Virus record (IMG/VR): IMGVR_UViG_2802429240_000010
Origin: a virus
Taxonomy: Duplodnaviria; Heunggongvirae; Uroviricota; Caudoviricetes
Direction: 5' to 3' (one strand)
Length of the DNA stretch: 32,334 nt
In this document: one piece after another, positions 1,658 through 26,791 of the stretch
Position numbering within the stretch: position 1 is the first letter of the stretch
Layout: each line of letters opens with the position of its first letter
Made by a program: the position numbers and the translations under genes
The notes under the pieces: model-generated
The model's database searches: none
Told to the model about the DNA's origin: nothing
What the model saw: only the letters and a program-made list of their open reading frames with translations

Positions 1658-4105
1658 TTAACCGTCATGCATCATGCTGGCACGGGCGCGCGCACGTTTA
1701 TCCCGCTCGTATTTTTCGAGCGCATCCTGTAACTGGCGGTCAAGCTGTGTCCCCGGCGCAGTTCCACCCGTCAGGCTGATGTGATATTCGTTTTTACTCT
1801 GGTCCACATAAGAGCGGCCAGCCGGTGCCGTGACCGGCTGATAAGCCTGATAGCCTGCATAAGAGCTGGTCGCCGGAATATAACCACCGGTGCCATACGT
1901 GGCGGCATGAGTTCTGGCGGCGGTCTGGTCAAGTGTGTCTGACTCTTTGTTGATGACCCCGAGCTTTTCCAGTACCCAGTCAATGCCGCTGCGCAGTTTG
2001 TTGAACGCATTAAGCGGCAGCATCAGCGCGTCAGCCAGTGCCTGCCCGAACATGACGCCCGTGTCACGGCAACGGTTCAGGGTGTCCTGTGTGGCTTTGA
2101 CCGGGGCAATCAGGTTTTTAAACCACTGCCACGCGGCCTGTAACTTTTCGCCCAGCCAGTCAAACACCGGCTTAAGTGGCGTGAACAGTTCCCCCACCGG
2201 CGCAAATGCCGCTTTCAGCCCTTCCACCACACCGCCAAAGAATGCGCTGACAGGCTCCCAGTATTTACGGATAAGCAACGCCCCGGCGACAATGGCGGCC
2301 ACCACGGCCACAACCGGCCAGCTAATCGCCCCGATGGCCGTCATAACGGCACTGCCAACCGTCGTGAAGATTGCCCCCATTGCGCCTGCTGCCGCGATGA
2401 TGGCATTGATGCCGGTGATAACCGGCCAGGCTACGAGGCCAATGGCACCGATGATGCCAGTAAGCGCCAGTGCGCCACCGGCAATGAGACCAATGGTTGA
2501 CGCCAGTGATTTGTTTTTCTGTATCCAGCCGTCGAGTTTTAACACATACTTTGTGGCCGTCTGCGTGAGCTTACGCAGCGCGCCTTCCTGCTGGTCAAAC
2601 AGGTCAGTCCCCACCGCCTCATAAGCGGACTGAAACTCCTTAAAGTCACCGCCGAGGTTGTCCTGCATGATATTTACCAGCTCGGCGGTCTTCCCGTCTG
2701 AGGCTTTAAACGCAGCGGTCAGTTTGTCCAGCTTTCCGGTTGAGGCGGCAGTCATCAGCACAGCGGCGGCTGAGCTGGCCTCCTCCCCGAAAATGGTTTT
2801 CATGTATTCAGCCTGCTGGGCAGTACCGAGCCGGTTTTTCTCAAAACTGGCCTGCATTTCTTTCAGAATGGTAAATACTGGTCGGGTATTCCCCTTGCTG
2901 TCTGAGGTTTTCACGCCAAGCTCTTTGAGTGCATCCCATGCTTTTCCCGTCGGTGCCTGCAGGCGACTTAACACGGCACGGCTTCCCGTCCCCGCCATTG
3001 AGCCTGTGATTTTTGCATCATGCAGCGCCCCGACCATTGCGGCGGTTTCTTCAATGCTGACACCGGCATTTTTTGCCACAGGTGCGGCATAGGTCAGCGC
3101 ATCGCTCATGCCGTCAAAATCGGCGGCGGTTTTGTTCATCGTCATGGAGAGAACATCCCCGATATGAGCGACCTTATCGTTTGAAAGCTGAAAGGCAGAT
3201 TTCATCCCCATCAGCAGGGCGGCGTTTTCTTCCATCGTGCGGCGGTTCGCCAGCGCCATATTCAGTGTAACCGGCGTTGCCGCCTGAATGGCATCAACAT
3301 CCCCACCGGCTTTCGCAATAATAATCTGCGCACCGGCTGCATCATCTGCCGAGGCTGCGGTATTGTCGCCGAGCTGACGCGCCTGCTTGCGTAGTGCAGC
3401 CATTTCGGCGGAGTCTTTTGCCACACCTAGCACGGCCTGCAATTCTGAGTTTTTCTGCGCAAACTCATAACCGGGCATCAGCAGCTTAACTCCGGCCATC
3501 GTTCCCGCCGCCGCAATCCCCACACCGGCAGCGCCCACCGAGGCCATATTTCCGGCCAGTTCCTTTCCGGCCTGATAACGCTGTTTTACTGCGTTAAGTT
3601 TTGCCTGTTGCGCACTGACACGCGCCAGCGCATCACGCTGACGGTTAAGCTGTGCGGTGGTTTCACTGATACGGTTTTTCAGTCCCTGCTCATCATGTGC
3701 AAGATTGCGGGTATTAATTCCCACAGCGGCCAGTTCCCGCTGCTGGCGTTTAACGGAATCCGTCAGGCGGTTATATTTCGCCTGTAAGTCCTCCGCCGCT
3801 CGCTTTGCGGATTCCAGCACTTTCGCCTGAGCACGGGTCGGACGTTCGGTGTTTTTAAACTGTGTGGCAAGGGCTTCGGCTTCCTGCCGTGCCTTTTCAA
3901 GTGCATGACCAGTCACGGCGAGCTGTGCACTTGTCTTGCGAAATCCCTCAATACGGGATGCCTGACCGTTCAGCTCGCACAGTGATTTTTGTGTTTCCCG
4001 GATATCCCCCGACAGCGATTTGCTCGCTGTGCGGATGGATTTAAACGGGCGGGATGCCTGGTCAACAGCCCTGAGCAATACCTGTAATTTTACATTGTTA
4101 CTCAT
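1658..4105 (-). CDS. T: Tail tape measure protein (P2 gpT-like), 815 aa
   Basis: Long Ala/Gly-rich, coiled-coil-like protein downstream of the E/E' chaperone pair; length and position match P2 gpT. Confidence 0.9.
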   Translation of the reverse strand: MSNNVKLQVLLRAVDQASRPFKSIRTASKSLSGDIRETQKSLCELNGQASRIEGFRKTSAQLAVTGHALEKARQEAEALATQFKNTERPTRAQAKVLESAKRAAEDLQAKYNRLTDSVKRQQRELAAVGINTRNLAHDEQGLKNRISETTAQLNRQRDALARVSAQQAKLNAVKQRYQAGKELAGNMASVGAAGVGIAAAGTMAGVKLLMPGYEFAQKNSELQAVLGVAKDSAEMAALRKQARQLGDNTAASADDAAGAQIIIAKAGGDVDAIQAATPVTLNMALANRRTMEENAALLMGMKSAFQLSNDKVAHIGDVLSMTMNKTAADFDGMSDALTYAAPVAKNAGVSIEETAAMVGALHDAKITGSMAGTGSRAVLSRLQAPTGKAWDALKELGVKTSDSKGNTRPVFTILKEMQASFEKNRLGTAQQAEYMKTIFGEEASSAAAVLMTAASTGKLDKLTAAFKASDGKTAELVNIMQDNLGGDFKEFQSAYEAVGTDLFDQQEGALRKLTQTATKYVLKLDGWIQKNKSLASTIGLIAGGALALTGIIGAIGLVAWPVITGINAIIAAAGAMGAIFTTVGSAVMTAIGAISWPVVAVVAAIVAGALLIRKYWEPVSAFFGGVVEGLKAAFAPVGELFTPLKPVFDWLGEKLQAAWQWFKNLIAPVKATQDTLNRCRDTGVMFGQALADALMLPLNAFNKLRSGIDWVLEKLGVINKESDTLDQTAARTHAATYGTGGYIPATSSYAGYQAYQPVTAPAGRSYVDQSKNEYHISLTGGTAPGTQLDRQLQDALEKYERDKRARARASMMHDG

Positions 4106-4525
4106 TCGTGTTTCCGCTTCGCCGGAGCGCCTTTTCGCGCCATGTGATGAGTTCGGTCAGGCTCATGGGATACAGTTCTGATGGCGGCCAGTGAAATATC
4201 ACTGCCACATCCGCCATCAGGTCATCGACCGAGAGATTTTTCGGAAACGTCACTGCACCGAGTTCGGCGACAAAAAACCGACCACCTTACCGGCCAGCGC
4301 CACAAGGTCAGGCAGTTCCAGCGCGGCGACTTCCTGCTCGGTCAGCATCGGTGCCGTCATGCGCGGCAGCACCTTAATCAGTGCATCGACTTCGGAGTTT
4401 GCAACCGCAGCCAGACTGACACCGCGCAGCGCCCCGGCATTGGGTTTCATCAGCGTGACCTGTTCGATAACCTGCTCACCACGTTTGACCGGATTTTCCA
4501 GGGTAATGACATTTTCTTTGTTCAT
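4098..4525 (-). CDS. E+E': Tail assembly chaperone gpE+E', 142 aa, made by a programmed -1 ribosomal frameshift
   Basis: I traced the -1 frame by hand from the slippery site: 85 codons in frame 0 plus 57 codons in frame -1 reach the first stop (TAA, plus-strand tta at 4098-4100). That gives 142 aa, the size of P2 gpE+E', and overlaps the start of T as in P2. Confidence 0.75.
4250..4525 (-). CDS. E: Tail assembly chaperone gpE, 91 aa (zero-frame product)
   Basis: 91-aa ORF directly upstream of T; contains the slippery run; equivalent to P2 gpE. Confidence 0.85.
   Translation of the reverse strand: MNKENVITLENPVKRGEQVIEQVTLMKPNAGALRGVSLAAVANSEVDALIKVLPRMTAPMLTEQEVAALELPDLVALAGKVVGFLSPNSVQ
4271..4277 (-). 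other. Slippery heptamer T-TTT-TTG for the E/E' -1 frameshift
   Basis: Minus-strand GGT TTT TTG (plus-strand caaaaaa at 4271-4277) lies in the gpE frame at codons Gly-Phe-Leu; same heptamer as the P2 E/E' site. Confidence 0.75.
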
Positions 4526-6303: not shown

Positions 6304-6525
6304 CCGTTTAACTCCGTGGTTAATGGGTGAGTGGTATTTTCATGTGTGCCGGAGATGTCAGGCTATTTGTCCCGGTTGGCTGAGGGATGGCACAATTTAT
6401 TCTTTGTCGCTGATGAGGCGAATTTTTTATAGAGCGTGGACAGGTCAATATCAAAAATCAGCGCCACACGTTGACGTGATTCCCTCGCAGCCAGCAATCG
6501 TCCTGCCTGTTCCCACACAGTCGAT

Positions 6526-6570
6526 TATCTGGAGCACTGGAACTTGTCGAAATTTCCAGTGCTCCAGATA
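6526..6570. promoter_or_regulatory. Perfect 15-bp inverted repeat with 15-nt spacer in the G-FI intergenic region; candidate stem-loop, terminator or protein-binding site
   Basis: tatctggagcactgg (6526-6540) is the exact reverse complement of ccagtgctccagata (6556-6570); it lies just downstream of the G stop; no U-tract follows on either strand. Confidence 0.4.
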
Positions 6571-6579
6571 TTGAATGGC

Positions 6580-7182
6580 CTACGCCTCCGGCAGTTCAGG
6601 CCAGATAACATCCGGCGCTGTGCTGGTATCTGTTGCTGTCACCGCGTCAATGTAATCCAGCACAGCGTTAAGCCGGGTTGTTTCTGTTTGCGTCAGTTTG
6701 CGCCCGGCCTGCAATTTCAACTGAATCAGACTAATGGAAGCCATTGCGGCATCAATCAGCGACTGGCGCTGTGTTTCTGCCGTCTCTACTGCGACGTGAT
6801 GTTGCTCCTCAGTATCTGTCACCCATTTCTCACCATCCCATTTATCGTATGGCGTTAACGGGGCGATAGTGGTTGTATTTTCAGGGTAATCACCCGGAGT
6901 TTTAATTTCTTTTGATTCCCCTGTTTCGGTGCTATAGACAATTTCACCACGATGGTCTGATACATATTCCCATGATTTTAAATCCACAGAACGGCAAATT
7001 GTATAACCAGCCTTATGTGTGCCAGGAGCGTCTAAACAGGAATATGCCGGAATACCGACACCCACAGCAAGATATTCAGTTGATGCAGAAATATATTCCC
7101 GCGTCTCACTGTCATAGTTGTAAACGATAATGTTTCCTTCCTGCACGGCAATAAGTTCATTATTTAATACCGCGTGATTCAT
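6580..7182 (-). CDS. G: Tail fibre assembly protein (P2 gpG / Tfa-like), 200 aa
   Basis: Sits immediately downstream of the tail fibre gene; start shares a base with the H stop; acidic N-terminal half and Tfa-like C-terminal region. Confidence 0.75.
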   Translation of the reverse strand: MNHAVLNNELIAVQEGNIIVYNYDSETREYISASTEYLAVGVGIPAYSCLDAPGTHKAGYTICRSVDLKSWEYVSDHRGEIVYSTETGESKEIKTPGDYPENTTTIAPLTPYDKWDGEKWVTDTEEQHHVAVETAETQRQSLIDAAMASISLIQLKLQAGRKLTQTETTRLNAVLDYIDAVTATDTSTAPDVIWPELPEA

Positions 7183-8573
7183 TATGCAGCCCTCACAATA
7201 AAGTTAAATGCAATATTGCGCGGTCGTGTTTCGCTCCCGCCCGTGTTACCAATACTTCCTCGTGAATGCAACCTCGGAGCCGGAATAAGGGTTCCCCCTG
7301 TATAAACGGCGTCAAGCCCCCGACCTTGTGTGTATGTATTCTGAAAAATTGTAGCCAACTCCCATTCTTCACCTGAATCATAACCATCGTTGGCAACAAC
7401 AATATGGCGGTGCTTCTCCAGCATCCCAGCCTGAATGCTCAATAAAGCACGTCCTGCATCAATACCACGCCCGTCATCCCATCCACGAATAAACTCACCA
7501 CGTAAATCCAGCAGTTTCCCTGACGGGTATGCTTTGGCAAGGTTGGGATATTTCACTTTATCAAAGGCAGCACCATTGCATTTCAGCCAGCCTGTCGGCG
7601 GAGTAGCAGAAGGCCACGGAATCGGTACACCAACAGGCAATGCAGAGCCTTCTCCCAAACCAAGATAATCAAGAACTCCCTGTGTGCTGGGCTTACTAAG
7701 AATGGCACGACCAACACTTGTCAGTGCAGTTAACGCGGCACGATCTACCCCTGTAAAATAAGGGAGTTTATCTGCCGCTGTAGCAAGCCCTGCCAGAGCA
7801 GTGAGTATGGCGTCTGCCGGTTGTCTTCCATTAGCCAGGTCGTATGCAGCCTTTACCGCTTTTGGCGTTGCAGCCAGTGTTTCAGATGTGCTGTTGGTTG
7901 CACTACTGAGCTGAACAAGCCCTTTTCGTGCCGTAGTCGCATCCTGAGCGGTATATTTCCCGTTAGCCAGGTCATATGCAGCCTTAACCGCTTTCGGTGT
8001 TGCGGCCAGTGTTTCAGATGTGCTGTTGGTTGCACTGCTTAACTGAGTAAAACCTTTTTCTGTCAGCGAGGCATCCGGGTGACGTCGTGACTGTTCGTGC
8101 TCAGAAATTTTGTCATCCACATATTTACGTGTTGCCAGTACCACAGCCGGGTCGATTTTCAGCGTGATGGCTTCGGTGTTCGTGACAACCAGAATCATGC
8201 GGATAGTCTGGGTGCGGCCACTGCCTTCCTGTAACTGCGGCTTGTACGTTTCCGGGCAGTTCGCCACCGCAATGAGTACGCCTTCATCATCATAAAGCCC
8301 AATCTCACGGATCCAGAATCCGCCCTCGTTCTCAGGGATGATTTGCTCCGCAATAATCTGGCTCTGGTTGTTCGGGTCAACACTCAGAAGATTCAGCGGC
8401 GCGATGCGTTTCTGGTTAATCAGTTTTGTCTGTGCCGGGTCTGGTGTCGGCAAGACACCATTCGCATCACCAACGGCCATTTGCGTCAGATTCAGCTTAC
8501 TGCCGAGCATCGTCGCGTTAGCCAGCCGTGCTGCGCCCTGATTAGTCAGAATGGCGTAGTATTTCACTGTCAT
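7182..8573 (-). CDS. H: Tail fibre protein (P2 gpH-like N-terminus with a different C-terminal receptor-binding region), 463 aa
   Basis: N-terminal ~250 aa resemble P2 gpH, including the duplicated QLSSATNSTSETLAATPKAVKAAYDLANG block; the C-terminus resembles Mu S / lambda Stf-type fibre ends (ETRPRNIAFNFIV); shorter than the 669-aa P2 H. Confidence 0.85.
   Translation of the reverse strand: MTVKYYAILTNQGAARLANATMLGSKLNLTQMAVGDANGVLPTPDPAQTKLINQKRIAPLNLLSVDPNNQSQIIAEQIIPENEGGFWIREIGLYDDEGVLIAVANCPETYKPQLQEGSGRTQTIRMILVVTNTEAITLKIDPAVVLATRKYVDDKISEHEQSRRHPDASLTEKGFTQLSSATNSTSETLAATPKAVKAAYDLANGKYTAQDATTARKGLVQLSSATNSTSETLAATPKAVKAAYDLANGRQPADAILTALAGLATAADKLPYFTGVDRAALTALTSVGRAILSKPSTQGVLDYLGLGEGSALPVGVPIPWPSATPPTGWLKCNGAAFDKVKYPNLAKAYPSGKLLDLRGEFIRGWDDGRGIDAGRALLSIQAGMLEKHRHIVVANDGYDSGEEWELATIFQNTYTQGRGLDAVYTGGTLIPAPRLHSRGSIGNTGGSETRPRNIAFNFIVRAA
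7832..8064. repeat. Imperfect tandem direct repeat (~132-bp unit, 2 copies) inside the tail fibre gene
   Basis: tagccaggtc...cagtgtttcagatgtgctgttggttgcact occurs at 7832 and again at 7964; it encodes the duplicated 44-aa block in gpH. Confidence 0.8.
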
Positions 8574-17501: not shown

Positions 17502-19274
17502 ATGACCATCACCACAGACACCACTCTTTTGCACGACCCGCGTCGTCAGGCGGCGCTGCTGTACTGGCAGGGGTTTTCCGTGCCGCAGATTGCCGCCATG
17601 TTGCAGATGAAACGCCCGACGGTGCAGAGCTGGAAACAGCGCGACGGCTGGGACAGCGTTGCCCCCATCAGCCGTGTCGAAATGAGTCTGGAAGCGCGGC
17701 TGACCCAGCTCATCATCAAACCGCAGAAAACCGGCGGTGACTTCAAGGAAATTGACCTGCTGGGACGCCAGATTGAACGACTGGCACGGGTCAACCGTTA
17801 CAGTCAGACCGGCAACGAGGCAGACCTTAATCCGAACGTCGCTAACCGCAACAAAGGCGGGCGCCGCAAACCGAAAAAGAATTTTTTCAGCGACGAAGCC
17901 ATCGAAAAGCTGGAGCAGATTTTCTTTGAGCAGTCTTTCGAATATCAGTTGCACTGGTATCGCGCCGGGCTTGAGCACCGCATCCGCGATATCCTGAAAT
18001 CCCGCCAGATTGGCGCAACGTTTTATTTTTCCCGCGAGGCGCTGCTGCGCGCCCTGAAAACCGGCCATAACCAGATTTTTCTGTCGGCCAGTAAAACGCA
18101 GGCGTATGTGTTCCGCGAATACATCATCGCCTTTGCCCGTCTGGTTGACGTTGACCTGACCGGTGACCCGATTGTCCTGGGCAATAACGGCGCAAAACTG
18201 ATTTTTCTCGGCACCAACTCCAACACCGCGCAGAGCCATAACGGCGACCTGTACGTCGATGAGATTTTCTGGATCCCGAATTTTCAGGTACTGCGTAAGG
18301 TGGCATCAGGTATGGCCTCACAGAGTCACCTGCGTTCGACCTATTTCTCCACCCCGTCCACGCTGGCGCACGACGCCTACCCGTTCTGGTCGGGTGAACT
18401 GTTTAACCGGGGACGCGCCAGCGCCGCTGAACGCGTGGAAATCGACGTCAGTCATAACGCACTTGCCGGAGGTCTTCTCTGTGCGGACGGCCAGTGGCGG
18501 CAGATTGTCACCATTGAGGACGCCCTGAAAGGCGGCTGCACGCTGTTCGACATTGAGCAGCTCAAACGCGAAAATAGCGCCGACGATTTTAAAAACCTGT
18601 TCATGTGTGAATTTGTTGACGACAAGGCGTCGGTGTTCCCGTTCGAGGAGCTGCAACGCTGCATGGTCGACACGCTGGAAGAATGGGAAGACTATGCGCC
18701 GTTTGTCGCGAATCCGTTCGGCTCCCGCCCGGTATGGATTGGTTACGACCCGTCACACCGTGGCGACAGCGCCGGATGCGTGGTACTGGCACCGCCGGTG
18801 GTGGCCGGTGGCAAATTCAGAATACTTGAGCGTCACCAGTGGAAAGGCATGGACTTTGCCACTCAGGCGGAATCCATCCGCAAACTCACCGAAAAATACA
18901 ACGTCGAATACATCGGTATTGATGCCACCGGCCTCGGTGTCGGCGTGTTCCAGCTCGTGCGCTCGTTCTATCCCGCCGCGCGCGACATCCGCTACACGCC
19001 GGAAATGAAAACCGCAATGGTGCTCAAGGCAAAAGACGTTATCCGTCGTGGCTGTCTGGAATATGACGTCAGCGCCACCGACATCACCAGCTCGTTTATG
19101 GCTATCCGCAAGACCATGACCAGCAGCGGACGCAGCGCCACCTATGAGGCCAGCCGCAGCGAGGAAGCCAGCCACGCCGACCTCGCCTGGGCGACCATGC
19201 ACGCCCTGTTAAATGAGCCACTCACCGCCGGTATCAGCACCCCGCTGACATCCACCATTCTGGAGTTTTACTGA
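17502..19274 (+). CDS. P: Terminase large (ATPase) subunit (P2 gpP-like), 590 aa
   Basis: From ATG 17502 (MTITTDTTLLHDPRRQ) the protein is 590 aa as in P2 gpP; the track ORF begins 10 codons earlier. Confidence 0.9.
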   Translation: MTITTDTTLLHDPRRQAALLYWQGFSVPQIAAMLQMKRPTVQSWKQRDGWDSVAPISRVEMSLEARLTQLIIKPQKTGGDFKEIDLLGRQIERLARVNRYSQTGNEADLNPNVANRNKGGRRKPKKNFFSDEAIEKLEQIFFEQSFEYQLHWYRAGLEHRIRDILKSRQIGATFYFSREALLRALKTGHNQIFLSASKTQAYVFREYIIAFARLVDVDLTGDPIVLGNNGAKLIFLGTNSNTAQSHNGDLYVDEIFWIPNFQVLRKVASGMASQSHLRSTYFSTPSTLAHDAYPFWSGELFNRGRASAAERVEIDVSHNALAGGLLCADGQWRQIVTIEDALKGGCTLFDIEQLKRENSADDFKNLFMCEFVDDKASVFPFEELQRCMVDTLEEWEDYAPFVANPFGSRPVWIGYDPSHRGDSAGCVVLAPPVVAGGKFRILERHQWKGMDFATQAESIRKLTEKYNVEYIGIDATGLGVGVFQLVRSFYPAARDIRYTPEMKTAMVLKAKDVIRRGCLEYDVSATDITSSFMAIRKTMTSSGRSATYEASRSEEASHADLAWATMHALLNEPLTAGISTPLTSTILEFY

Positions 19275-20308
19275 TGAGCAAGAAAAAAGGGAAAACACCG
19301 CAACCTGCGGCAAAAACAATGACCGCCAGCGCCCCGAAAATGGAGGCATTCACCTTTGGTGAGCCGGTGCCGGTACTCGACCGCCGTGACATTCTGGATT
19401 ACGTCGAGTGCATCAGTAACGGCAGATGGTATGAGCCACCGGTCAGCTTTACCGGTCTGGCAAAAAGCCTGCGTGCTGCCGTGCATCACAGCTCACCGAT
19501 TTACGTCAAACGTAATATTCTGGCCTCGACATTTATCCCGCATCCGTGGCTTTCCCAGCAGGATTTCAGCCGCTTTGTGCTGGATTTTCTGGTGTTCGGT
19601 AATGCGTTTCTGGAAAAGCGTTACAGCACCACCGGTAAGGTCATCAGACTGGAAACCTCACCGGCAAAATATACCCGCCGTGGCGTGGAGGAGGATGTTT
19701 ACTGGTGGGTGCCGTCCTTCAACGAGCCGACACCTTTCGCGCCCGGCTCCGTGTTTCACCTGCTGGAGCCGGATATTAATCAGGAGCTGTACGGTCTGCC
19801 GGAATATCTCAGCGCCCTTAACTCTGCGTGGCTGAATGAATCAGCCACGCTGTTCCGCCGCAAGTATTATGAAAACGGCGCACATGCCGGATACATCATG
19901 TATGTCACCGATGCCGTGCAGGATCGCAACGATATCGAAATGCTCCGCGAAAACATGGTCAAGTCAAAAGGCCGCAACAACTTTAAAAACCTGTTTCTCT
20001 ATGCACCGCAGGGAAAGCCAGACGGCATCAAAATTATCCCGCTCAGTGAAGTGGCAACGAAGGACGATTTTTTTAATATCAAAAAAGCCAGCTCCGCTGA
20101 CCTGCTGGACGCGCACCGCATCCCCTTTCAGTTGATGGGTGGCAAGCCGGAGAACGTCGGGTCGCTGGGTGATATTGAGAAAGTGGCAAAGGTCTTTGTC
20201 CGCAATGAGCTTATCCCGTTACAGGACAGGATTCGGGAAATAAACGGCTGGCTCGGTCAGGAGGTCATCCGCTTTAAAAACTACTCACTGGACACTGACA
20301 ACGGCTGA
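19274..20308 (+). CDS. Q: Portal protein (P2 gpQ-like), 344 aa
   Basis: 344 aa as in P2 gpQ; start overlaps the P stop (ATGA); the cos site follows. Confidence 0.9.
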   Translation: MSKKKGKTPQPAAKTMTASAPKMEAFTFGEPVPVLDRRDILDYVECISNGRWYEPPVSFTGLAKSLRAAVHHSSPIYVKRNILASTFIPHPWLSQQDFSRFVLDFLVFGNAFLEKRYSTTGKVIRLETSPAKYTRRGVEEDVYWWVPSFNEPTPFAPGSVFHLLEPDINQELYGLPEYLSALNSAWLNESATLFRRKYYENGAHAGYIMYVTDAVQDRNDIEMLRENMVKSKGRNNFKNLFLYAPQGKPDGIKIIPLSEVATKDDFFNIKKASSADLLDAHRIPFQLMGGKPENVGSLGDIEKVAKVFVRNELIPLQDRIREINGWLGQEVIRFKNYSLDTDNG

Positions 20309-20477: not shown

Positions 20478-20496
20478 GTGCTTTCCCCGCCTCGCC
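20478..20496. other. cos: P2-type cos site (19-nt cohesive end sequence)
   Basis: gtgctttccccgcctcgcc is the exact reverse complement of the P2 cohesive end GGCGAGGCGGGGAAAGCAC as I recall it; it lies just past Q, as in P2. Confidence 0.85.
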
Positions 20497-20547
20497 CGCC
20501 CGCTTCGTGGGGCGGTTTTAATGCAGGTGCATTTAAGCCTCTAACCC

Positions 20548-20576
20548 TTGCATGTAAAGGACTTGTGGGATTAAAT
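20548..20576 (+). promoter_or_regulatory. Candidate sigma70 promoter for the DUF262-HEPN cargo operon
   Basis: TTGCAT (20548-20553), 17-bp spacer, TTAAAT (20571-20576); AAGGAG ribosome-binding site at 20627-20632, 7 nt before ATG 20640. Confidence 0.4.
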
Positions 20577-20639
20577 CAGTATAAAACTACGCATGCAAAC
20601 AAATGCAACTTATTGCAAATAAGCATAAGGAGAAAACAA

Positions 20640-21764
20640 ATGGCAAGAGTCCCAAGACAACCTGAACAAGTGATCACAGAAGAAGATAAAGTTGACCTGG
20701 ATAACCAGATCAAATCCATGCAAAAAATAACGGATCACCAAATTAGAGAGTTTCCTGTAAGTGTCATTGTTGACAAATTTCAGAAAGGATTAGAAACCGA
20801 CCAAGCAGAACTATACATACCTGATTATCAAAGGGAATTTGTTTGGAGCAATGTTCAAAAATCAAGATTCATTGAATCTCTTTTGCTAAATATTCCTATC
20901 CCATATGTATTTGTCGCCGATATCGGAAATGACGATGGGCGATTGGAAATCGTTGATGGTAGCCAGAGGATTAGAACACTTTATCATTTCCTAAATGATA
21001 AATTTACCCTTACTGGATTAAAAAAGCTAACTTCAGCCAACGGATTCAAATACTCTGACTTCACACCTGCACGTAAGCTTAGATTCGATAGAAAAACTAT
21101 TCGAATGATTGAACTCACTGAATTATGTGATGAAGAAGCAAGAAGGGAGATTTTCGATCGATTGAATACAGGTGGAATAAAACTCACGACAATGGAGCAA
21201 CGACAGGGCAGTAATGATGGGCCTTTTCTTGATGTTGTTAATAGACTATCAGAGTTTCCATTGTTTAGGGAAATATGCCCTCTAAACGATGCTAGGATCA
21301 GTCGTGGAGAATATCCAGAATTGGTTCTTAGATATTTTGCCTATTGTGATAACTATCTTAACTTTGAAAAAAGTGTTGATACTTTCTTAACCCAATATCT
21401 TGACCAACGCAATGAGTCATTTAGTCCTGAGCAAGAAGAAAAACTAACTGCACAATTTCAAGATATGTGTGAATTTGTCAAAACATATTTCCCCTATGGT
21501 TTCAGAAAGAATGCAACGGCAAACACTGTACCAAGAATTCGCTTTGAAGCGTTAGCTGTCGGTTCCACTTTGGCCTTAAAAACTGACTCTAACATAATAC
21601 CAACACCGGTAGAGGAATGGTTAAACTCAGAAGAGTTTATTAAACATACAAGATCTGATGCATCAAATTCAAAACCTAAAGTAAAAGCACGTATTGAATA
21701 TGTAAGAGACAAACTTTTAGGTGTGCAGACCGAAGATACTGTTCTAGATGATAGTGAGGAGTAA
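20640..21764 (+). CDS. DUF262 / ParB-like nuclease-domain protein (GmrSD-like N-terminal domain, no HNH/DUF1524 domain), 374 aa
   Basis: Strong ribosome-binding site and ATG at 20640. Contains DUF262 hallmark motifs IPDYQREFVW and EIVDGSQRIRT. The ~170-aa C-terminal part has no HNH motif I can see. The gene is AT-rich compared with the phage backbone. The track ORF start at 20478 lies inside cos and is an artefact. Confidence 0.75.
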   Translation: MARVPRQPEQVITEEDKVDLDNQIKSMQKITDHQIREFPVSVIVDKFQKGLETDQAELYIPDYQREFVWSNVQKSRFIESLLLNIPIPYVFVADIGNDDGRLEIVDGSQRIRTLYHFLNDKFTLTGLKKLTSANGFKYSDFTPARKLRFDRKTIRMIELTELCDEEARREIFDRLNTGGIKLTTMEQRQGSNDGPFLDVVNRLSEFPLFREICPLNDARISRGEYPELVLRYFAYCDNYLNFEKSVDTFLTQYLDQRNESFSPEQEEKLTAQFQDMCEFVKTYFPYGFRKNATANTVPRIRFEALAVGSTLALKTDSNIIPTPVEEWLNSEEFIKHTRSDASNSKPKVKARIEYVRDKLLGVQTEDTVLDDSEE

Positions 21765-21770
21765 CTATCC

Positions 21771-22502
21771 GTGGTCATCATGAACAGCAAAATTTTATTT
21801 TCTGAAAGAAAAGAAGATATAGAAAAATATTTTGATTTTGTTAAATTCATTATTGATGAGAGACCAACATTCTCGTACAAAGATCGCATAGCAGGCGAAT
21901 GTAAACACCGCGAAATTGATATCGAAATGACGCATATCCTAAAAGCCAATGCGTTTATTATATTATATAACTTAATTGAAGCCACTATATCTAATGCTAT
22001 TGAAGATATACATAATGAACTTAATTCGTGTGATGATCTTTGTGTCGATAAAATTTGCGAAAGTTTAACAAAGCTTGCCTTAAAAAAATTAGACCATCAT
22101 ATGGTGAGTGACATGGATTTTTCACAAGGTGATATAGCAAAACTAGTTCTAAAAAAATGGCTAGAGGAACACAAAAAACAAGTTCAAGCAGATAAAAACC
22201 CCCTATTTTCTGGAAATGTTGACGCACAGAAAATTAGGGATGTTGCTAGTATCTATGGTTTTTCCTCTCAAACAGATCGTTCAAAAACTCATAATGGTGG
22301 AAATTTAGTAAACATAAAAAAAGCAAGAAATGCATTGGCGCATGGTTCAGAATCCTTTTTAAACAAGGGTCAAGAAACGTCTATTGACAACCTTGAACTT
22401 CTTAAAAATGAAGTTTTCCATTACCTAGAAGAAATACTAGAAAACATACAAAAATACCTTGATGATCGCTTATACATACGATCATCAAGACTACAGGCTT
22501 AA
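21771..22502 (+). CDS. Putative HEPN-domain protein (Rx4H motif; MAE_28990/Swt1-like or Abi-like), ~243 aa
   Basis: Starts 7 nt after the upstream stop. GTG at 21771 has a GAGGAG ribosome-binding site 10 nt upstream; the alternative ATG at 21780 has none. Predicted alpha-helical protein with C-terminal KKARNALAHG (Rx4H). AT-rich. Confidence 0.6.
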   Translation: MVIMNSKILFSERKEDIEKYFDFVKFIIDERPTFSYKDRIAGECKHREIDIEMTHILKANAFIILYNLIEATISNAIEDIHNELNSCDDLCVDKICESLTKLALKKLDHHMVSDMDFSQGDIAKLVLKKWLEEHKKQVQADKNPLFSGNVDAQKIRDVASIYGFSSQTDRSKTHNGGNLVNIKKARNALAHGSESFLNKGQETSIDNLELLKNEVFHYLEEILENIQKYLDDRLYIRSSRLQA

Positions 22503-23536
22503 ACTATATTGTGCTCTTTTAGGTGAGTTATAATTGACTCACCTATAACCTCACCTAGTTTTACCGGTACAGCATTACCAATCATCCTACCAACATTCTT
22601 TATAGATACTTTCTCATTGGGTGCAGTAAAAACGTAATCCTTTGGAAACGTTTGTAACAATGCAGCCTCTCTCAGAGAAATTGCACGATTTTGCTCGGGA
22701 TGACCAAATCTGCCATTTCCAAAACCATAACATAGCGTAGTAATTGTAGGACTTGGTTTATCCCAATCCATACGTCCATATACACTAGCATAACCTTGCC
22801 CACTTTTCTTTATGTGGCATGATGCAATCAACTCTACTGGCCAGTCTCGCCATGTCCCTCCTGGTTTAGAGCAAGCAATACGTTTTAGATTTATATCACT
22901 TAATTTACTTGCTTTATGTAAAGGATCAACAGGATCCGTTTGACCAGCCTTTAATGGAGGAAGTCCGCCAATGCATTCTTTTACCGTCACCGCCTTTTCT
23001 ACTTTTGGTTTTACAAATGAAAGCGGCGCAAATTTAGATGCCAATAATACATGCCTAACTCTATTTTGCGGAACACCATAATCTACACATTCAACCTTTC
23101 CGGCCCAGACATGATAACCCAATGCCTCTAAACTATTATAGAAGTCACTATAAACAGAATGCTTCGTTACATCAGGTACATTTTCCATTGTAACGATCTC
23201 TGGATTAACCCCTCGAATTAAACGTTCAAATTCATAAAGAAGAGGCCACTTTTTATCATTTTTCTTATCGCGCCCTTGCGTATACCTTGAAAAAGGTTGG
23301 CACGGCGCACAACCAGCCAACACCCTTACCTGCGCACCTTCAAAAAGATCGTTAAGCTCGTCTTTGGTCACCAGAGAAATATCTTTTTCAATAAAAAGCG
23401 CACTGTTATTACTTTCATAAGCAGCCCGGCATGCACTCTCTATATCAATACCAGCGACTACATCTAATCCGGCTTGCTTTAAGCCATGAGTAAGCCCGCC
23501 AGCACCACAAAAAAGATCAACAACTTTTACCGCCAT
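22499..23536 (-). CDS. DNA (cytosine-5)-methyltransferase, 345 aa
   Basis: Motif I DLFCGAGG, motif IV GCAPCQPFS (catalytic Pro-Cys), motif VI ENV, motif VIII QNRVR, motif X GNAVPV. ATG at 23536 has a GGAGA ribosome-binding site; an upstream in-frame ATG at 23626 is possible. Its stop overlaps the stop of the convergent HEPN gene. Confidence 0.85.
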   Translation of the reverse strand: MAVKVVDLFCGAGGLTHGLKQAGLDVVAGIDIESACRAAYESNNSALFIEKDISLVTKDELNDLFEGAQVRVLAGCAPCQPFSRYTQGRDKKNDKKWPLLYEFERLIRGVNPEIVTMENVPDVTKHSVYSDFYNSLEALGYHVWAGKVECVDYGVPQNRVRHVLLASKFAPLSFVKPKVEKAVTVKECIGGLPPLKAGQTDPVDPLHKASKLSDINLKRIACSKPGGTWRDWPVELIASCHIKKSGQGYASVYGRMDWDKPSPTITTLCYGFGNGRFGHPEQNRAISLREAALLQTFPKDYVFTAPNEKVSIKNVGRMIGNAVPVKLGEVIGESIITHLKEHNIV

Positions 23537-23841
23537 TTTAGTCTCCGATTCATCCTCCGACAGAGTATAACTGTATCCTTCAAAAATCTCGAGCGTTTTA
23601 GCAAACAACAAGAATGCTCCCCACATCCAGCCCTAAGGCCTTATCCTAGCCTAGCTTTACTACAATTAATCCAACAATTTCTGTAAATACATCCATTCCC
23701 TCTCGTAACCGAATACTCTCAACATCCTTTCCACTAATGTACTGTTTTAAATGACTTTAACTTTACATAACTAACGCCTCGCTTCGCTCGTTGTTCAACC
23801 CCGCCAGCCCTGAAAACAAGTTTCACGACTGGCGGCGTTCT

Positions 23842-24048
23842 CTATCGTCTGCGTGGTGGTGGCGTAACTCTTGATTGACCGATATGATTAAACCGCCCGT
23901 AATTATCCCGGACTATTTCGGCACACCCGACCAGCTCATCGGGCGTCAGATTTTCGTTGACCATAATCCGCTGTAAACGCTGAACAATGGCCATCAGCTT
24001 GATATTTTTAGTTTTATGGTGCGGTATCTCGCCTGGTATTCTGTGCAT
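23842..24048 (-). CDS. Hypothetical small protein, 68 aa
   Basis: ATG at 24048 shares a base with the stop of the upstream ASCH gene, suggesting translational coupling; no recognisable motif. Confidence 0.4.
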   Translation of the reverse strand: MHRIPGEIPHHKTKNIKLMAIVQRLQRIMVNENLTPDELVGCAEIVRDNYGRFNHIGQSRVTPPPRRR

Positions 24049-24500
24049 TATCCAAGCCACCCGTTTTGCTTTGCATGCTCCATCTGTTCATCTGAATAAT
24101 TCCATATCCCATCCGTGGCAACCATTGCCCCACCAGACATCCCTGTCTCTGGTTCATACATAACAGCAAGGCCAAGCTGATGCATAATTTCATGATTAAT
24201 TCTGAATACCAGACCACGTTCACTAAGTTCTTTCCAGTTCACAATCTTATATGCGCCCGTATTAAGCAGCTCAATACTTAGCAAGACATAATCTTCCAGC
24301 CAGTCTGACAGGTCAGTAACATCTGTTATCCGGGCTTCAACCTTGCGCCCCGTAAACACACCCTGCACCCATTCATGCAAAATCAACGTGTCCCCGCGCT
24401 CATAATTACGGTCATTTTTCCGAAACTCTGCGCGTTTCTTTCCTTCCAGTACAAGGTCGAAATATTTTGCGTGCAGCTTTACCTCGTGAATTTTTGCCAT
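24048..24500 (-). CDS. ASCH-domain protein with a C-terminal extension carrying an HExxH motif, 150 aa
   Basis: ATG at 24500 shares a base with the A stop. N-terminus has the ASCH GxKxxExR signature (EGKKRAEFR). C-terminal tail contains HEIMH. Sits where P2 has orf91, directly after A. Confidence 0.65.
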   Translation of the reverse strand: MAKIHEVKLHAKYFDLVLEGKKRAEFRKNDRNYERGDTLILHEWVQGVFTGRKVEARITDVTDLSDWLEDYVLLSIELLNTGAYKIVNWKELSERGLVFRINHEIMHQLGLAVMYEPETGMSGGAMVATDGIWNYSDEQMEHAKQNGWLG

Positions 24501-26791
24501 TATGTCCACTCCATTACTGTTGAGAATCCCGGCCACTCATCAGCGACCGGATACGTGAATTTTTTCCCGTCATAATTTACAGTCGCGCCACGCGCCAGCG
24601 CCTCAAGCTCCCATCGCTGAGGCCTGATACCGTTCTGAGCAAGGTCAACGCGGATACGGGTGATTTGCATTCGTTCCGACCGGGTCAGTCTGGCCGATGG
24701 TGCAATTTCATGTGGTTTTAACGGGCTTCCGTTTCTTTGCTGACGACTTGGCGTTCTCCGACCGTGTTTTAATGCACCCCTGAGCGCCCTCACGACCTCC
24801 GGGTCATTCCATTCGATAACACCGTCATCAACCAGATTAAGCACTGCTGCAACGTGCTCAGAAGGTGTGGGAGCCGGTAACGAAGTATCACTACCGGTGA
24901 GCTTTCCACAGTTATTGACAGGACTCCGAGGCGCGGCGATGCCGCTTTTTAAAGTCAAAGGCTCAACGACCGGAACTTTCGGCACAATGCGCCAGTCCGT
25001 CGTTCTGGTGATATGAATATGACGCGCGCCGAGATGCGGCGCGTAAATGCCGACCACTCTCTCGACTTCTTCCTCGTACTCGTTAACGTCATCCGACGGG
25101 CTACGGGCAACCCTGACAGTCTGACAATCGCGCGGGACATTTGCCCCACCCTGCGCGCTGATATACAACGCAAAATCACCACTGTCTGCGGCAGCGCGAG
25201 CAGCCTCGACGCGTTCGTCAAACTCATCAGCAATGCTGACGCCGCTAGGCAATTTGCGTAGTTCACGGTAAGCCCCCATTGTCGGCAGGCCAACCGTTTT
25301 AAATTGTGGAATACGCCACGTTGACGCCCATGCGGTAACAGCCGCTGCAGTATCTTTCAGCGGCCTGCCGGTATCGTTATCGAGCTGACCATCCAGTGCA
25401 TAGCCGTCGATGTTTTTTGAGATGTATTTCGCGATATACCCCGCAGCACCGCCCCGGTTAAGATGTTTTGCCTGAAAACGGTTTCGCGCGGCTCCTCTTT
25501 CGTCGCCATCCTCTTTGAGCGCATAGCGACGCATGATTTCGATAATCTGGTTACGCTGGCGTGGATTACAAAAAAGCATCATATGCCAGTGCGGCGTTCC
25601 GTCGTGGTGTGGCTCGACGACTCGCAAACCGTAGACCTGTAAATCATTATCCTTGAATGCCGTGCGCATCAGGCTCCAGATACGGCAAAGATAACGCTGC
25701 GCATCCTTTGGATTAAATGCCTCATCGTTCCAGCCGTGATTAAGCTGAACGGTTTTACTTTCGCCTTTTCCGACCTGACGTGTCGGGTGATACTTTGACG
25801 GCGCGGTCAGCGTGATAAACATCCCCACATCACCCTCTGCGGCGGCGTAACGCTCAATACCGGCAATGGTGTTCATCAGCTCCATCCGGCGAATTTCAGG
25901 ATTAGAAATACTGCCCATCACCTTACTGATAAGGTCGATGCGTTCGCCGGTTTCCCTGTTTTCGAGGTCACACGATTTAAGAAATTCCAGATTTGCCTGG
26001 CGGCGTGCACGTACATCACGAATGGCATGTTTACTGGCATAAGGAGAACGGTCTTTATTCACCGCCCCGACAGCAATCAGTAACGCCTCATGCCAGCGCA
26101 TACGCTGGCCTTTAAGCTGATGAGTCCACCACTCATCGTTAAACAGACGGGCAATGGCAGAATATGCCCGCCTCGTGGTCATCTGTCCTTTACGGTATTT
26201 TTTCCAGTAGAGCGGGGAAATATTGAAAGCACGTGCAGCGCCAGCAACATGACCATAGAGGTGAGCCTGCGCCTCATCCGTAAACAGCGATTCTTTTTCG
26301 CCATGCGCATCCACCCAGGCATCGCTGAGTTCCTCATACATCATGAAAAGCTGCGATGAGATACGGACGGCAAATTTTTTCAGCTCCTTGTCATTCATTC
26401 CCGGCAGGCGTGCATACTGGTCGCGCTCTGCCAGAAACAGCAACGACGCGTCGGTGTTCATTTCATGGCGCTGATTCACGCGCTCAATGCGCGGCCATAA
26501 ACGACGCTGAAAAGTGGATGTGAGGAAATAAAACCCGTGTAGCGGACTTTTATTGCGCCGGATGTAGTCATAGCGTGAAGTAAACAGCGAGCGCAAAAAG
26601 TAAGGCAGGCGGTTAATCGTGGATAAAACACCTTGCACCTGACGCATCTCGTCACGTGTAAGGGTTCTTTCGCGCCCGACGGCCTCGCGTGGCGCGTTCC
26701 ATGCATAAGCACCGGTAAACGCCTTACCGGTGCCTGCAGCAAATGCTGACGGAGGTACGCAGGTGTATTGCTCCTGGAAAGAATGACTCAT
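24500..26791 (-). CDS. A: Replication initiation endonuclease (P2 gpA-like, rolling-circle), 763 aa
   Basis: Near full-length match to P2 gpA as I recall it (VPPSAFAAGTGK...FTYPVADEWPGFSTVMEWT); size ~761 aa. Confidence 0.9.
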   Translation of the reverse strand: MSHSFQEQYTCVPPSAFAAGTGKAFTGAYAWNAPREAVGRERTLTRDEMRQVQGVLSTINRLPYFLRSLFTSRYDYIRRNKSPLHGFYFLTSTFQRRLWPRIERVNQRHEMNTDASLLFLAERDQYARLPGMNDKELKKFAVRISSQLFMMYEELSDAWVDAHGEKESLFTDEAQAHLYGHVAGAARAFNISPLYWKKYRKGQMTTRRAYSAIARLFNDEWWTHQLKGQRMRWHEALLIAVGAVNKDRSPYASKHAIRDVRARRQANLEFLKSCDLENRETGERIDLISKVMGSISNPEIRRMELMNTIAGIERYAAAEGDVGMFITLTAPSKYHPTRQVGKGESKTVQLNHGWNDEAFNPKDAQRYLCRIWSLMRTAFKDNDLQVYGLRVVEPHHDGTPHWHMMLFCNPRQRNQIIEIMRRYALKEDGDERGAARNRFQAKHLNRGGAAGYIAKYISKNIDGYALDGQLDNDTGRPLKDTAAAVTAWASTWRIPQFKTVGLPTMGAYRELRKLPSGVSIADEFDERVEAARAAADSGDFALYISAQGGANVPRDCQTVRVARSPSDDVNEYEEEVERVVGIYAPHLGARHIHITRTTDWRIVPKVPVVEPLTLKSGIAAPRSPVNNCGKLTGSDTSLPAPTPSEHVAAVLNLVDDGVIEWNDPEVVRALRGALKHGRRTPSRQQRNGSPLKPHEIAPSARLTRSERMQITRIRVDLAQNGIRPQRWELEALARGATVNYDGKKFTYPVADEWPGFSTVMEWT

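Follow-up and report, generated by a model that had tools for sequence, protein, structure and literature searches.

Gene H of a P2-like prophage encodes a tail fiber (gpH) of 463 amino acids (aa), against 669 aa in P2 (NC_001895). This raises the question of whether it is a shortened remnant or a working protein put together from parts of different origins. An earlier note on the stretch of DNA analyzed here (32,334 nucleotides; "the window") had proposed a mosaic with a P2-like N terminus, a tandem repeat, and a tip of the invertible-segment type. Both lengths were confirmed, and the mosaic could be traced in the DNA. A backbone identity of about 97% to pro483, magyaro, and S164 breaks off at window positions 8113 to 8110, the repeat block is just 78 to 91% identical to P2 and P1-like genes, and similarity to the tips of invertible segments begins at 7663 to 7675. 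We conclude that gpH is very probably a functional fiber of four modules, with a shaft of variable copy number and a locked tip derived from a degraded invertible cassette.

The reading frame of H opens with ATG and is uninterrupted across all 463 aa. Its start overlaps the stop of gene I (ATGA) and its stop overlaps the start of gene G (TAATG), which suggests translational coupling at both junctions. The gene order J-I-H-G (Baseplate_J, Tail_P2_I, H, and Caudo_TAP) was kept, followed by the sheath and tube genes. P2-type genes for the capsid, scaffold, terminases, portal, sheath, tape measure, baseplate, and integrase are all present, and Peduovirus magyaro was 96.6% identical to the window over 81% of 25 kb. 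The host element is a complete Peduovirus (P2-like) prophage of Escherichia. The exact protein was already known from public databases, with a 100% identical entry (P0079) on 14 contigs, and its architecture recurs on hundreds of contigs. In two genomes, genes 98% identical to H were split into three fragments by the RefSeq annotation; on translation, their frames were intact. An AlphaFold2 monomer model of full-length gpH, based on a 20-sequence alignment, was uninformative (mean pLDDT, 29.9; pTM, 0.19), and the fold assignments given below are therefore sequence matches. Poor structure prediction is expected for trimeric fibers with shallow alignments.

Table 1. Features of gene H and its downstream neighborhood, in window coordinates
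Feature	Position	Strand	Basis
Tail-fiber gene H (gpH), 463 aa, intact	7182..8573	-	PF12571, PF03406 (2 stretches), PF07484
Module 1, N-terminal domain, aa 1-153	8115..8573	-	PF12571 aa 1-150, E 2.3e-62
Module 2, two tandem 44-aa (132-bp) Phage_fiber_2 shaft repeats	7794..8076	-	PF03406, 2 stretches, E 6e-42
32-nt run identical in both repeat units	8005..8036, partner 7873-7904	-	Longest shared run
Module 3, conserved pre-tip shaft segment (RQPADAILTALAGLATAADKLPYFTG...VLDY), about aa 250-302	7668..7826	-	Sequence comparison
Din-family invertase crossover-site relic TTCTTGATTATCTTGGTTTGGGAGAA, encodes ...LDYLGLGE	7650..7675	-	Versus magyaro inverted repeats
Module 4, predicted receptor-binding tip, aa 304-463	7182..7664	-	PF07484 aa 315-362
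Gene G, tail-fiber assembly chaperone (Tfa), 200 aa	6580..7182	-	PF02413, E 8e-32
Relic of alternative chaperone gene tfa', last 24 codons only	6534..6605	+	blastx
DNA invertase relic, C-terminal 50 aa (HTH) only	6366..6515	-	blastx

The match of module 1 to PF12571 (Phage_tail_fib) scored 209.9 bits (cut-off, 23). Its DNA was 96.6 to 97.5% identical to that of pro483, magyaro, and S164, unbroken from gene I. P2 gpH was 65% identical to gpH here over aa 1 to 266 and about 55% identical, as judged by eye, in the first 150 aa. The P2-like N terminus of the earlier note thus holds at the level of the family, but with only about 55 to 65% identity to P2, the domain is placed elsewhere: it is native to the pro483/magyaro lineage of peduoviruses. 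The domain co-evolves with the baseplate genes of its own phage and would anchor a trimeric fiber to the baseplate.

In the four-part scheme, module 2 corresponds to about aa 166 to 249. Repeat unit 1 spans 8057 to 7926 (aa 173 to 216) and unit 2 spans 7925 to 7794 (aa 217 to 260), with the homology reaching upstream to 8076. PF03406 matched gpH with 141.4 bits (cut-off, 22), and the tandem repeat was visible in the DNA too. Tandem Repeats Finder reported 7831 to 8076 (period, 132; 1.9 copies; 82% matches; 0 indels; score, 352), and a repeat search paired 7828 to 7944 with 7960 to 8076 (117 nt, 82% identity). The identity at a lag of 132 was 0.82, compared with a best value of 0.43 among 2000 shuffles of the gene. 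The tandem repeat placed previously at 7832 to 8064 was therefore right within a few bases and duplicated at the DNA level. The 33-aa cores of the two units share 31 of 33 residues and differ at 14 of 99 nucleotides; 10 of the codon differences are synonymous and 2 are non-synonymous, which indicates purifying selection on the cores. Over the full 132 nt, the two units diverge by 26%, and the identical runs between them measure 32, 11, 11, and 8 nt. In pro483, magyaro, and S164, gene H has no PF03406 repeats. Because P2 gpH carries the same two copies, with 100% protein identity over aa 173 to 242, the 44-aa duplication is ancestral and no distinguishing trait of H here.

The number of repeat units varies between alleles. 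Among genes with an N terminus at least 96% identical to that of gpH here, the series runs from 1 copy (419 aa) through 2 (463 aa), 3 (507 aa), and 4 (551 aa) to 5 copies (590 to 607 aa). The same anchor with the same tip was found with 1, 2, or 3 units, and with other tips the number reached 5; P1-like S proteins have 8 PF03406 copies. Both flanks of the 1-copy allele L097 agree fully with the window (516/516 nt on the 5' side and 640/640 nt on the 3' side). The sole unit of this allele equals unit 1 at 7 informative sites upstream of the 32-nt run and unit 2 at 27 informative sites past it. These identical flanks and the clean switch from unit 1 to unit 2 identify L097 as a direct 1-copy recombinant of the window allele, with the crossover interval within the 32-nt run, and they point to unequal recombination or slippage and not to an independent lineage. 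Another allele, L002, has an independent chimeric unit. The 3-copy alleles have a middle unit that diverges 22 to 26% from its neighbors and is therefore no recent local duplication. By inspection, the window allele is the 3-copy allele without exactly this unit, and the boundaries share merely the 6-nt AAAAGG. Shaft copy number most probably shifts by unequal homologous recombination or slippage, giving rise to the allelic series, and such shifts may affect fiber length or host range. The suspicion that the repeat is prone to recombination was borne out by the alleles of 1 to 5 copies on the same N terminus and by the one direct recombinant.

The pre-tip segment (module 3) is common to P2 gpH (aa 318 to 377), the N terminus of lambda orf-314, and P1-like S. 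In the four-part scheme it covers aa 250 to 303 and closes with ...YLGLGE, a motif whose DNA is a crossover site of the serine-invertase (Gin/Cin/Pin) type. The crossover-site relic at its end matches the perfect inverted-repeat arms of magyaro, TTCTCGCATACCTTGGTTTGGGAGAA, at 22 of 26 positions. It was recognized only by comparison with magyaro and pro483 and their inverted repeats; the generic Din-site core AAACCNNGGTTT, with 2 mismatches allowed, gave no match in H and a result below chance elsewhere. The relic forms the boundary between shaft and tip, and the tip starts exactly there.

The tip alignment showed a cassette pattern, conserved-variable-conserved. The tip consists of a conserved collar at aa ~304 to 385, a hypervariable center at aa ~386 to 445, and a conserved C-terminal strand, ETRPRNIAFNFIVRAA, the motif already pointed out in the earlier note. 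PF07484 scored 42.8 bits (cut-off, 24). The T4 gp37 tip (2xgf) aligned at aa 309 to 396 and 440 to 463 (E 2.3e-18), lambda orf-314 was 53% identical over aa 249 to 395, and the tips of P1-like S proteins were 85 to 87% identical. The tip belongs to the lambda Stf / T4 gp37 / P1-like S collar class. Of the two sources previously suggested for it, lambda Stf is retained; Mu S was rejected because its match is confined to the repeat (aa 167 to 254). BLASTP with Mu S' gave no match in the variable part, and the PDB 5yvq match was restricted to aa 200 to 254, also within the repeat. Only one HxH motif (HRH) occurs in the tip, directly past the collar, unlike the long needle of collar-type tips, with its multiple HxH motifs and a distal head domain. 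Since the T4 gp37 needle has several, the distal architecture may differ from that of T4 and lambda. The HxH motifs of the T4 gp37 needle are said to be metal-binding in the 2xgf structure paper. The variable center of the tip would be the part that binds the receptor. Among related loci in other Enterobacterales species (n = 65), 33 had a P2-type N terminus nearby; an invertase was present in full at 17 and in part at 6.

The product of G was 87.5% identical to magyaro Tfa, 84.5% identical to pro483 tfa2, which is paired with a collar tip in inverted orientation, and 36% identical to lambda Tfa. G travels with the tip as a jointly inherited pair, and its product would aid tip folding. Beyond G, the tfa' relic was 92% identical to pro483 tfa1 aa 124 to 147 and is likewise annotated by RefSeq in relatives. 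The invertase relic was 90% identical to aa 148 to 197 of the pro483 invertase and 65% identical to aa 148 to 181 of Mu Gin; PF02796 (HTH_7) matched the 51-aa gene called there weakly. The catalytic part, the N-terminal 147 aa, is gone, which leaves aa 148 to 197 of 197, and the deletion junction lies at about 6523. No alternative tip was found in the window, where the partner genes of opposite orientation are reduced to 24 tfa' codons. With relics of both tfa' and the invertase downstream, the locus is best described as a locked former invertible cassette, a fossil of a Din-invertase segment (Mu G, P1 C, e14 P, and pro483 type) and not a member of that group. The tip and chaperone most probably derive from a cassette of the kind that pro483 and magyaro, its sister phages, still have intact. 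The loss of ~1.3 kb (1,263 bp by comparison with magyaro) probably took away the alternative tip together with most of tfa' and the catalytic portion of the invertase, leaving the fiber locked in one host-range state. The invertible-segment origin claimed for the tip was upheld by the crossover relic at the junction together with the downstream relics, and it implies exchange of host-range modules.

A 20-nt palindrome at 6526 to 6570 was considered as an intrinsic terminator of the operon and rejected, as it has no T-run and was absent from the output of a terminator scan. An imperfect version of this palindrome is already found within the tfa' coding sequence of intact relatives.

Truncated relics of the invertase and tfa' next to a fiber 206 aa shorter than P2 gpH could also mean that H itself is decaying, a non-functional remnant shortened by degenerative deletions in a cryptic prophage, and near-identical genes are indeed flagged by RefSeq as partial pseudogene pieces. 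However, these split genes translate without an internal stop, and the frame of H is intact, overlaps both neighbors, and is accompanied by a full set of morphogenetic genes. The deficit consists of an absent 75-aa shaft segment and a tip that is 131 aa shorter (160 versus 291 aa), and the seemingly missing segment is absent as well from P1-like S of the same design. Decay is also at odds with the occurrence of the same architecture on hundreds of contigs and with the excess of synonymous differences in the repeat cores, and we consider it very improbable. It is hardly conceivable that the tip is still phase-variable, inverted in trans by an invertase such as Pin of e14 or that of another prophage. 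Din-family invertases (Gin, Cin, Pin, and Hin) do complement one another, and a crossover-like site survives in H. Nevertheless, this is one site only, and its left half carries 4 mismatches; a search of the whole 32-kb window for a second site, at up to 3 mismatches, found none, and neither an alternative tip nor more than 24 codons of tfa' is left.

The copy-number series might, for its part, reflect assembly artifacts or independent ancient lineages instead of recombination within the repeat. Part of the alleles were derived from short-read or Logan assemblies, and the diverged middle unit of the 3-copy alleles does not look like a recent local duplication. Yet short reads can resolve the units, given their divergence of 26% across the 132 nt. 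Moreover, alleles of 1 and 3 copies were found in complete genomes too (L002 and L004), one 3-copy cluster spans 827 contigs, and L097 matches the window outside the repeat and switches units in the longest identical run, which makes this explanation very unlikely.

As a probably functional mosaic, H is an ordinary modular P2-like fiber gene that leaves the current view of fiber evolution unchanged. It provides a natural example of cut-and-join points in tail fibers, at about aa 153 (after the PF12571 anchor) and about aa 303 (the YLGLGE crossover site), the latter boundary being at most 8 residues from the best-working engineered P2-P1 fusion point (PMC9942202). For repeat contraction, it supplies a documented pair of parent and product. 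These points are of use in the design of retargeted P2/P4 particles or tailocins, and annotation pipelines are concerned, as intact mosaic genes are split into pseudogene fragments by RefSeq. An unlikely but broader reading is that the PF03406 array acts as a tunable ruler of fiber length, with the role of a contingency locus for reach, and that erosion of the neighboring invertase locks the tip after host settlement. If so, copy number would be selected to fit the thickness of the host surface layer (O-antigen or capsule), and synonymous divergence would be selected, with the rate of change low yet above zero by way of the single 32-nt run. In parallel, repeated erosion of the neighboring invertase may reflect selection for a locked tip in prophage lineages that have settled in a host.

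The 2026 paper on P2-like diversity contains no treatment of invertases or fiber repeats, and the BASEL paper has nothing on peduoviruses. P2 itself shares with this locus the J-I-H-G position, PF12571, two PF03406 repeats, and a pre-tip segment ending in YLGL. It differs in the additional 75-aa shaft segment (aa 243 to 317), in a 291-aa tip of another type, visibly Mu S-like and without a collar domain, and in having fun(Z) between G and FI and no invertase cassette. That P2, Mu, P1, lambda, and T-even phages exchange parts of their fibers horizontally was reportedly described by Haggard-Ljungquist, Halling & Calendar in 1992.

The sister phages pro483 (NC_028943) and magyaro (KC618326) share the backbone, including H aa 1 to 153, at 97% DNA identity, a cassette in the same position, flanked by H and the sheath gene, collar-type tips, a 200-aa Tfa (84 to 88% identical), and the 3' end of the invertase and the sheath region (97% identical). 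In these phages, however, the cassette (order: H, tfa, tfa', Hv', invertase, sheath) retains both inverted-repeat sites, tfa', and Hv', and in pro483 the full 197-aa invertase. Their shafts have another sequence without PF03406, and their tips are just 54 to 61% identical to that of the window. The S protein of P1-like phage-plasmids (809 aa; P0109-P0113 and vB_EcoM-673R5) has the repeats through the C terminus in common with gpH; the top match to the tip within the phage collection lies in inverted orientation, adjoining Hin/Cin genes. The S protein differs in its N-terminal baseplate domain (PF25060), in a cassette that still has its invertase, and in 8 repeats with a 100-aa higher-order period; like gpH, it is without the 75-aa shaft segment of P2.

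Lambda Stf (orf-314) and T4 gp37 resemble the tip in the collar region, the HxH past the collar, the sequence ...NIAFN(F/Y)IVR(A/L)A at the C terminus, and a downstream gene for a chaperone of the Tfa family. The variable center of lambda is ~150 aa, compared with ~60 aa here, and has many HxH motifs instead of one. The lambda and T4 tips are specific for OmpC (Ur-lambda Stf structure paper, PMC12617516), a specificity that is not transferable to the tip here. In the Mu G segment (S/U, S'/U', and gin), a constant part is likewise joined, at a site encoding ...LGL.E, to alternative tips that each have their own chaperone, and Mu S carries one PF03406-like unit; its S and S' tips, however, have no similarity to the tip here, and the cassette of the window is no longer invertible. 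A fiber joined in the same region by design, the engineered P2-P1 fusion at P2 aa 370, 8 residues before YLGL, was functional with the P1 chaperone supplied (PMC9942202).

Judged by its sequence, the window represents a P2-like (Peduovirus) prophage in complete form, with P2-type genes for capsid, scaffold, terminase, portal, sheath, tube, tape measure, baseplate, replication (gpA) and integrase. Its first 25 kb showed 96.6% identity to Peduovirus magyaro over 81% of the length. The tail-fibre gene H is flanked by gene I (PF09684) on one side and the chaperone gene G (PF02413) on the other; the I stop and the H start overlap as ATGA, and the H stop and the G start as TAATG. A protein 100% identical to window H (P0079) was found on 14 public contigs from Escherichia genomes, named only "phage tail protein". 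In two relatives, E. coli PEC422 (L001, 1501-2892) and CFSAN061761 (L002, 1501-2760), RefSeq/PGAP splits H into two "incomplete" pseudogene pieces and a 158-aa CDS. Both genes are 97-98% DNA-identical to window H and are translated without an internal stop, and the splitting looks like an annotation artefact arising from the mosaic structure.

Features of the tail-fibre locus and of other cargo in the window
Feature	Coordinates	Strand	Description
H tail-fibre ORF	7182-8573	-	intact, one open reading frame, 463 aa
Tandem repeat in H	7831-8076		period 132, 1.9 copies, 82% matches, no indels (Tandem Repeats Finder)
Repeat unit 1	8057-7926		44 aa (132 bp)
Repeat unit 2	7925-7794		44 aa (132 bp)
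Crossover-site relic in H	7675-7650		TTCTTGATTATCTTGGTTTGGGAGAA; codes for LDYLGLGE
tfa' relic	6534-6605	opposite to G	last 24 codons; 92% identical to pro483 tfa1
Invertase relic	6366-6515		last 50 codons; 90% identical to pro483 aa 148-197, 65% to Mu Gin
Palindrome	6526-6570		20 nt, 95% complementary, 5-nt loop
Portal gene Q	19274-20308
Two-gene cargo	20478-22502	+	between Q and the replication region
C-5 cytosine DNA methyltransferase	22499-23626	-	PF00145; PADLOC DrmMII / type II MTase-like
ASCH/DUF3850 protein	24048-24536	-	downstream of gpA
PAPS-reductase-like protein	26788-27795	-	PF01507; directly upstream of gpA; weak SspD, BrxP and DndC matches

H was described in the earlier note as a mosaic fibre, and the DNA comparison gave breakpoints between its modules at 8113 and 7663-7675. 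From gene I to position 8113 (H aa 1-153, the PF12571 domain), the identity to the sister phages pro483, magyaro and S164 was 96.6 to 97.5%, and it ended abruptly there; the shaft of these phages has a different sequence, without PF03406 repeats. The DNA of the repeat block was 78 to 91% identical to P2 and about 84% to a P1-like phage. It is followed by a conserved pre-tip stretch (aa 250-303) shared with P2 gpH aa 318-377, the N terminus of lambda orf-314 and P1-like S, and likeness to invertible-cassette tips starts at 7663-7675. Window H is 206 aa shorter than P2 gpH because a 75-aa shaft segment is absent and the tip is shorter (160 aa versus 291 aa in P2). The proposed shaft/tip junction is supported by P2-P1 fibre engineering, in which the fusion point of highest efficiency, P2 residue 370, lay eight residues ahead of YLGL, and the donor phage chaperone gene was included as possibly needed for folding (PMC9942202).

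The tandem 44-aa duplication was confirmed at the DNA level. A gapless repeat search returned 117 nt at 82% identity, and the identity at the repeat lag was at most 43% in all shuffled versions of the gene. The repeat corresponds to two stretches of Pfam Phage_fiber_2 (PF03406). It is not, however, a peculiarity of the window gene, since P2 gpH holds the same two units; over aa 173-242 the two proteins are 100% identical, although the DNA of this block is only 89% identical. The 33-aa cores of units 1 and 2 share 31 residues and differ at 14 of 99 nucleotides. These differences are mostly synonymous, and the repeat points to an old duplication under purifying selection.

Copy number varied among relatives, as expected of the recombination-prone repeat proposed earlier. 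Proteins whose N-terminal domain shared 96% or more identity with that of window H carried one (419 aa), two (463 aa, the window allele), three (507 aa, the commonest, one cluster being on 827 contigs), four (551 aa) or five copies (590-607 aa, with other tips), and alleles bearing exactly the window tip had one, two or three. The one-copy allele L097 matched the window at 516/516 nt upstream of the repeat and at 640/640 nt at the 3' end of H. The one unit it carries agreed with unit 1 at 7 informative sites and then with unit 2 at the other 27, with the switch point within a 32-nt run identical in both units (8036-8005 = 7904-7873). This is the only long identical run between them, the next longest being 11 nt. 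Unequal homologous recombination, or slippage during replication, acting on the window allele would be expected to give a product such as L097. For RecA-dependent recombination in E. coli to be efficient, a minimum of about 23-27 bp is usually quoted, which the 32 nt just exceed. A second, independent one-copy chimera was found in the complete genome of CFSAN061761. The three-copy allele L098, with the same tip, has units 1 and 2 on either side of a divergent third one, which is 74-78% identical to both units of the window; this allele could be either ancestral or derived from exchange with another allele.

Eight copies were found in the 809-aa S proteins of P1-like phages, which have a different N terminus. 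In this S gene (L006, vB_EcoM-673R5, 2750-4400; P0109-P0113), the eight PF03406 units form a 300-nt (100-aa) higher-order repeat, each period comprising two units and the linker APSSHTHPWNQITGVP. The S gene is fragmented in the deposited vB_EcoM-673R5 record, probably by sequencing frameshifts.

In the tip, Pfam placed a Phage Tail Collar domain at aa 315-362. Of the solved structures, the receptor-binding tip of T4 gp37 matched best (2xgf, E 2.3e-18), over aa 309-396 and, in a second stretch, over the last 24 residues. In the tip alignment, the collar and the C-terminal strand were conserved, and the centre (about 60 aa, with a single HRH motif) was hypervariable. A likeness to lambda Stf held, orf-314 (the Stf C-terminal part) showing 53% identity over aa 249-395. 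The label "Mu S-like" was wrong for the tip, because Mu S aligned with the shaft repeat only and Mu S' gave no match to window H. The nearest tips outside the prophage group were those of the 809-aa S proteins of P1-like phage-plasmids (85-87% identity). G was 84 to 88% identical to the Tfa chaperones accompanying the collar tips of magyaro and pro483, more than the tips themselves (54-61%), which fits a chaperone that would recognise conserved tip parts.

Invertible fibre loci are known in P2-like prophages (PMC4272514). The gene order in pro483 and magyaro runs from H through tfa, tfa' (inverted), Hv' (inverted) and the DNA invertase to the sheath gene. Inverted repeats containing TTCTCGCATACCTTGGTTTGGGAGAA lie on both sides of the segment, and those of magyaro are perfect over 31 nt. 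The crossover-site relic in window H matches this magyaro-type site at 22 of 26 positions, and its peptide corresponds to NLGLQE at the annotated G-segment boundary of Mu S. The tfa' and invertase relics both lie downstream of G, joined at about 6523. Together with the top tip match in the phage collection, which was in inverted orientation beside the Hin/Cin genes of a P1-like phage, these relics bear out a tip of the invertible-segment type. Compared with magyaro, the window lacks 1,263 bp, and no second crossover site was found in the whole window. With tfa' and the invertase reduced to relics and a second site missing, the cassette can no longer invert and its tip is locked. The same deletion was present in related E. 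coli prophages.

The cassette was eroded independently, by a different deletion, in E. coli 96_1414B (L003, 3688-4614), where the tfa' relic is longer (207 nt) and the invertase relic shorter (123 nt), with an IS600 insertion after them; its H (537 aa) retains the P2-like 75-aa middle segment. Near the tip family in other Enterobacterales species, the invertase was full in 17 and truncated in 6 of 65 loci. Invertase remnants (32-92 aa matched) adjoin collar-type tips at L019, L021, L037, L040, L056, L067, L076 and L091. Truncation beside collar-type tips in several Enterobacterales genera suggests recurrent invertase loss. The palindrome lies just 3' of the G stop; the tfa' relic contains it, and 3 nt separate it from the deletion junction. 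In intact relatives the palindrome is imperfect and has a 1-nt bulge, and in the window lineage a 1-nt deletion and several substitutions made it nearly perfect. It has no T-run and received no call in the terminator scan.

Elsewhere in the prophage, the two-gene cargo occupies the position of the old/tin hotspot in P2. Its first gene codes for a 428-aa GmrSD_N/DUF262 protein (PADLOC NsnA 2.7e-55, PD-T4-2_A 6.6e-34) and its second for a 243-aa HEPN protein (PF18737), probably an anti-phage defence pair. The methyltransferase gene is convergent with it, and no cognate restriction enzyme was identified.

Around the directly observed module boundaries, relics, copy-number series and recombinant allele, a working of the fibre can be proposed from its protein families. 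The N-terminal domain of H would dock the fibre trimer on the baseplate, which would explain its inheritance with the backbone; the shaft would be built from the PF03406 units and the pre-tip segment; and the collar tip, assisted in folding by Tfa, would bind a surface receptor through its variable centre. All of the domains are represented in Pfam, and public databases already contain the exact protein. Haggard-Ljungquist et al. (1992, cited in PMC13100340) reportedly described that P2, Mu, P1, lambda and T-even phages exchange parts of their fibres horizontally. Against this background, the explicit allelic series of shaft repeats, with its documented pair of parent and product alleles, and the repeated decay of the invertase into a fossil may be modestly new.
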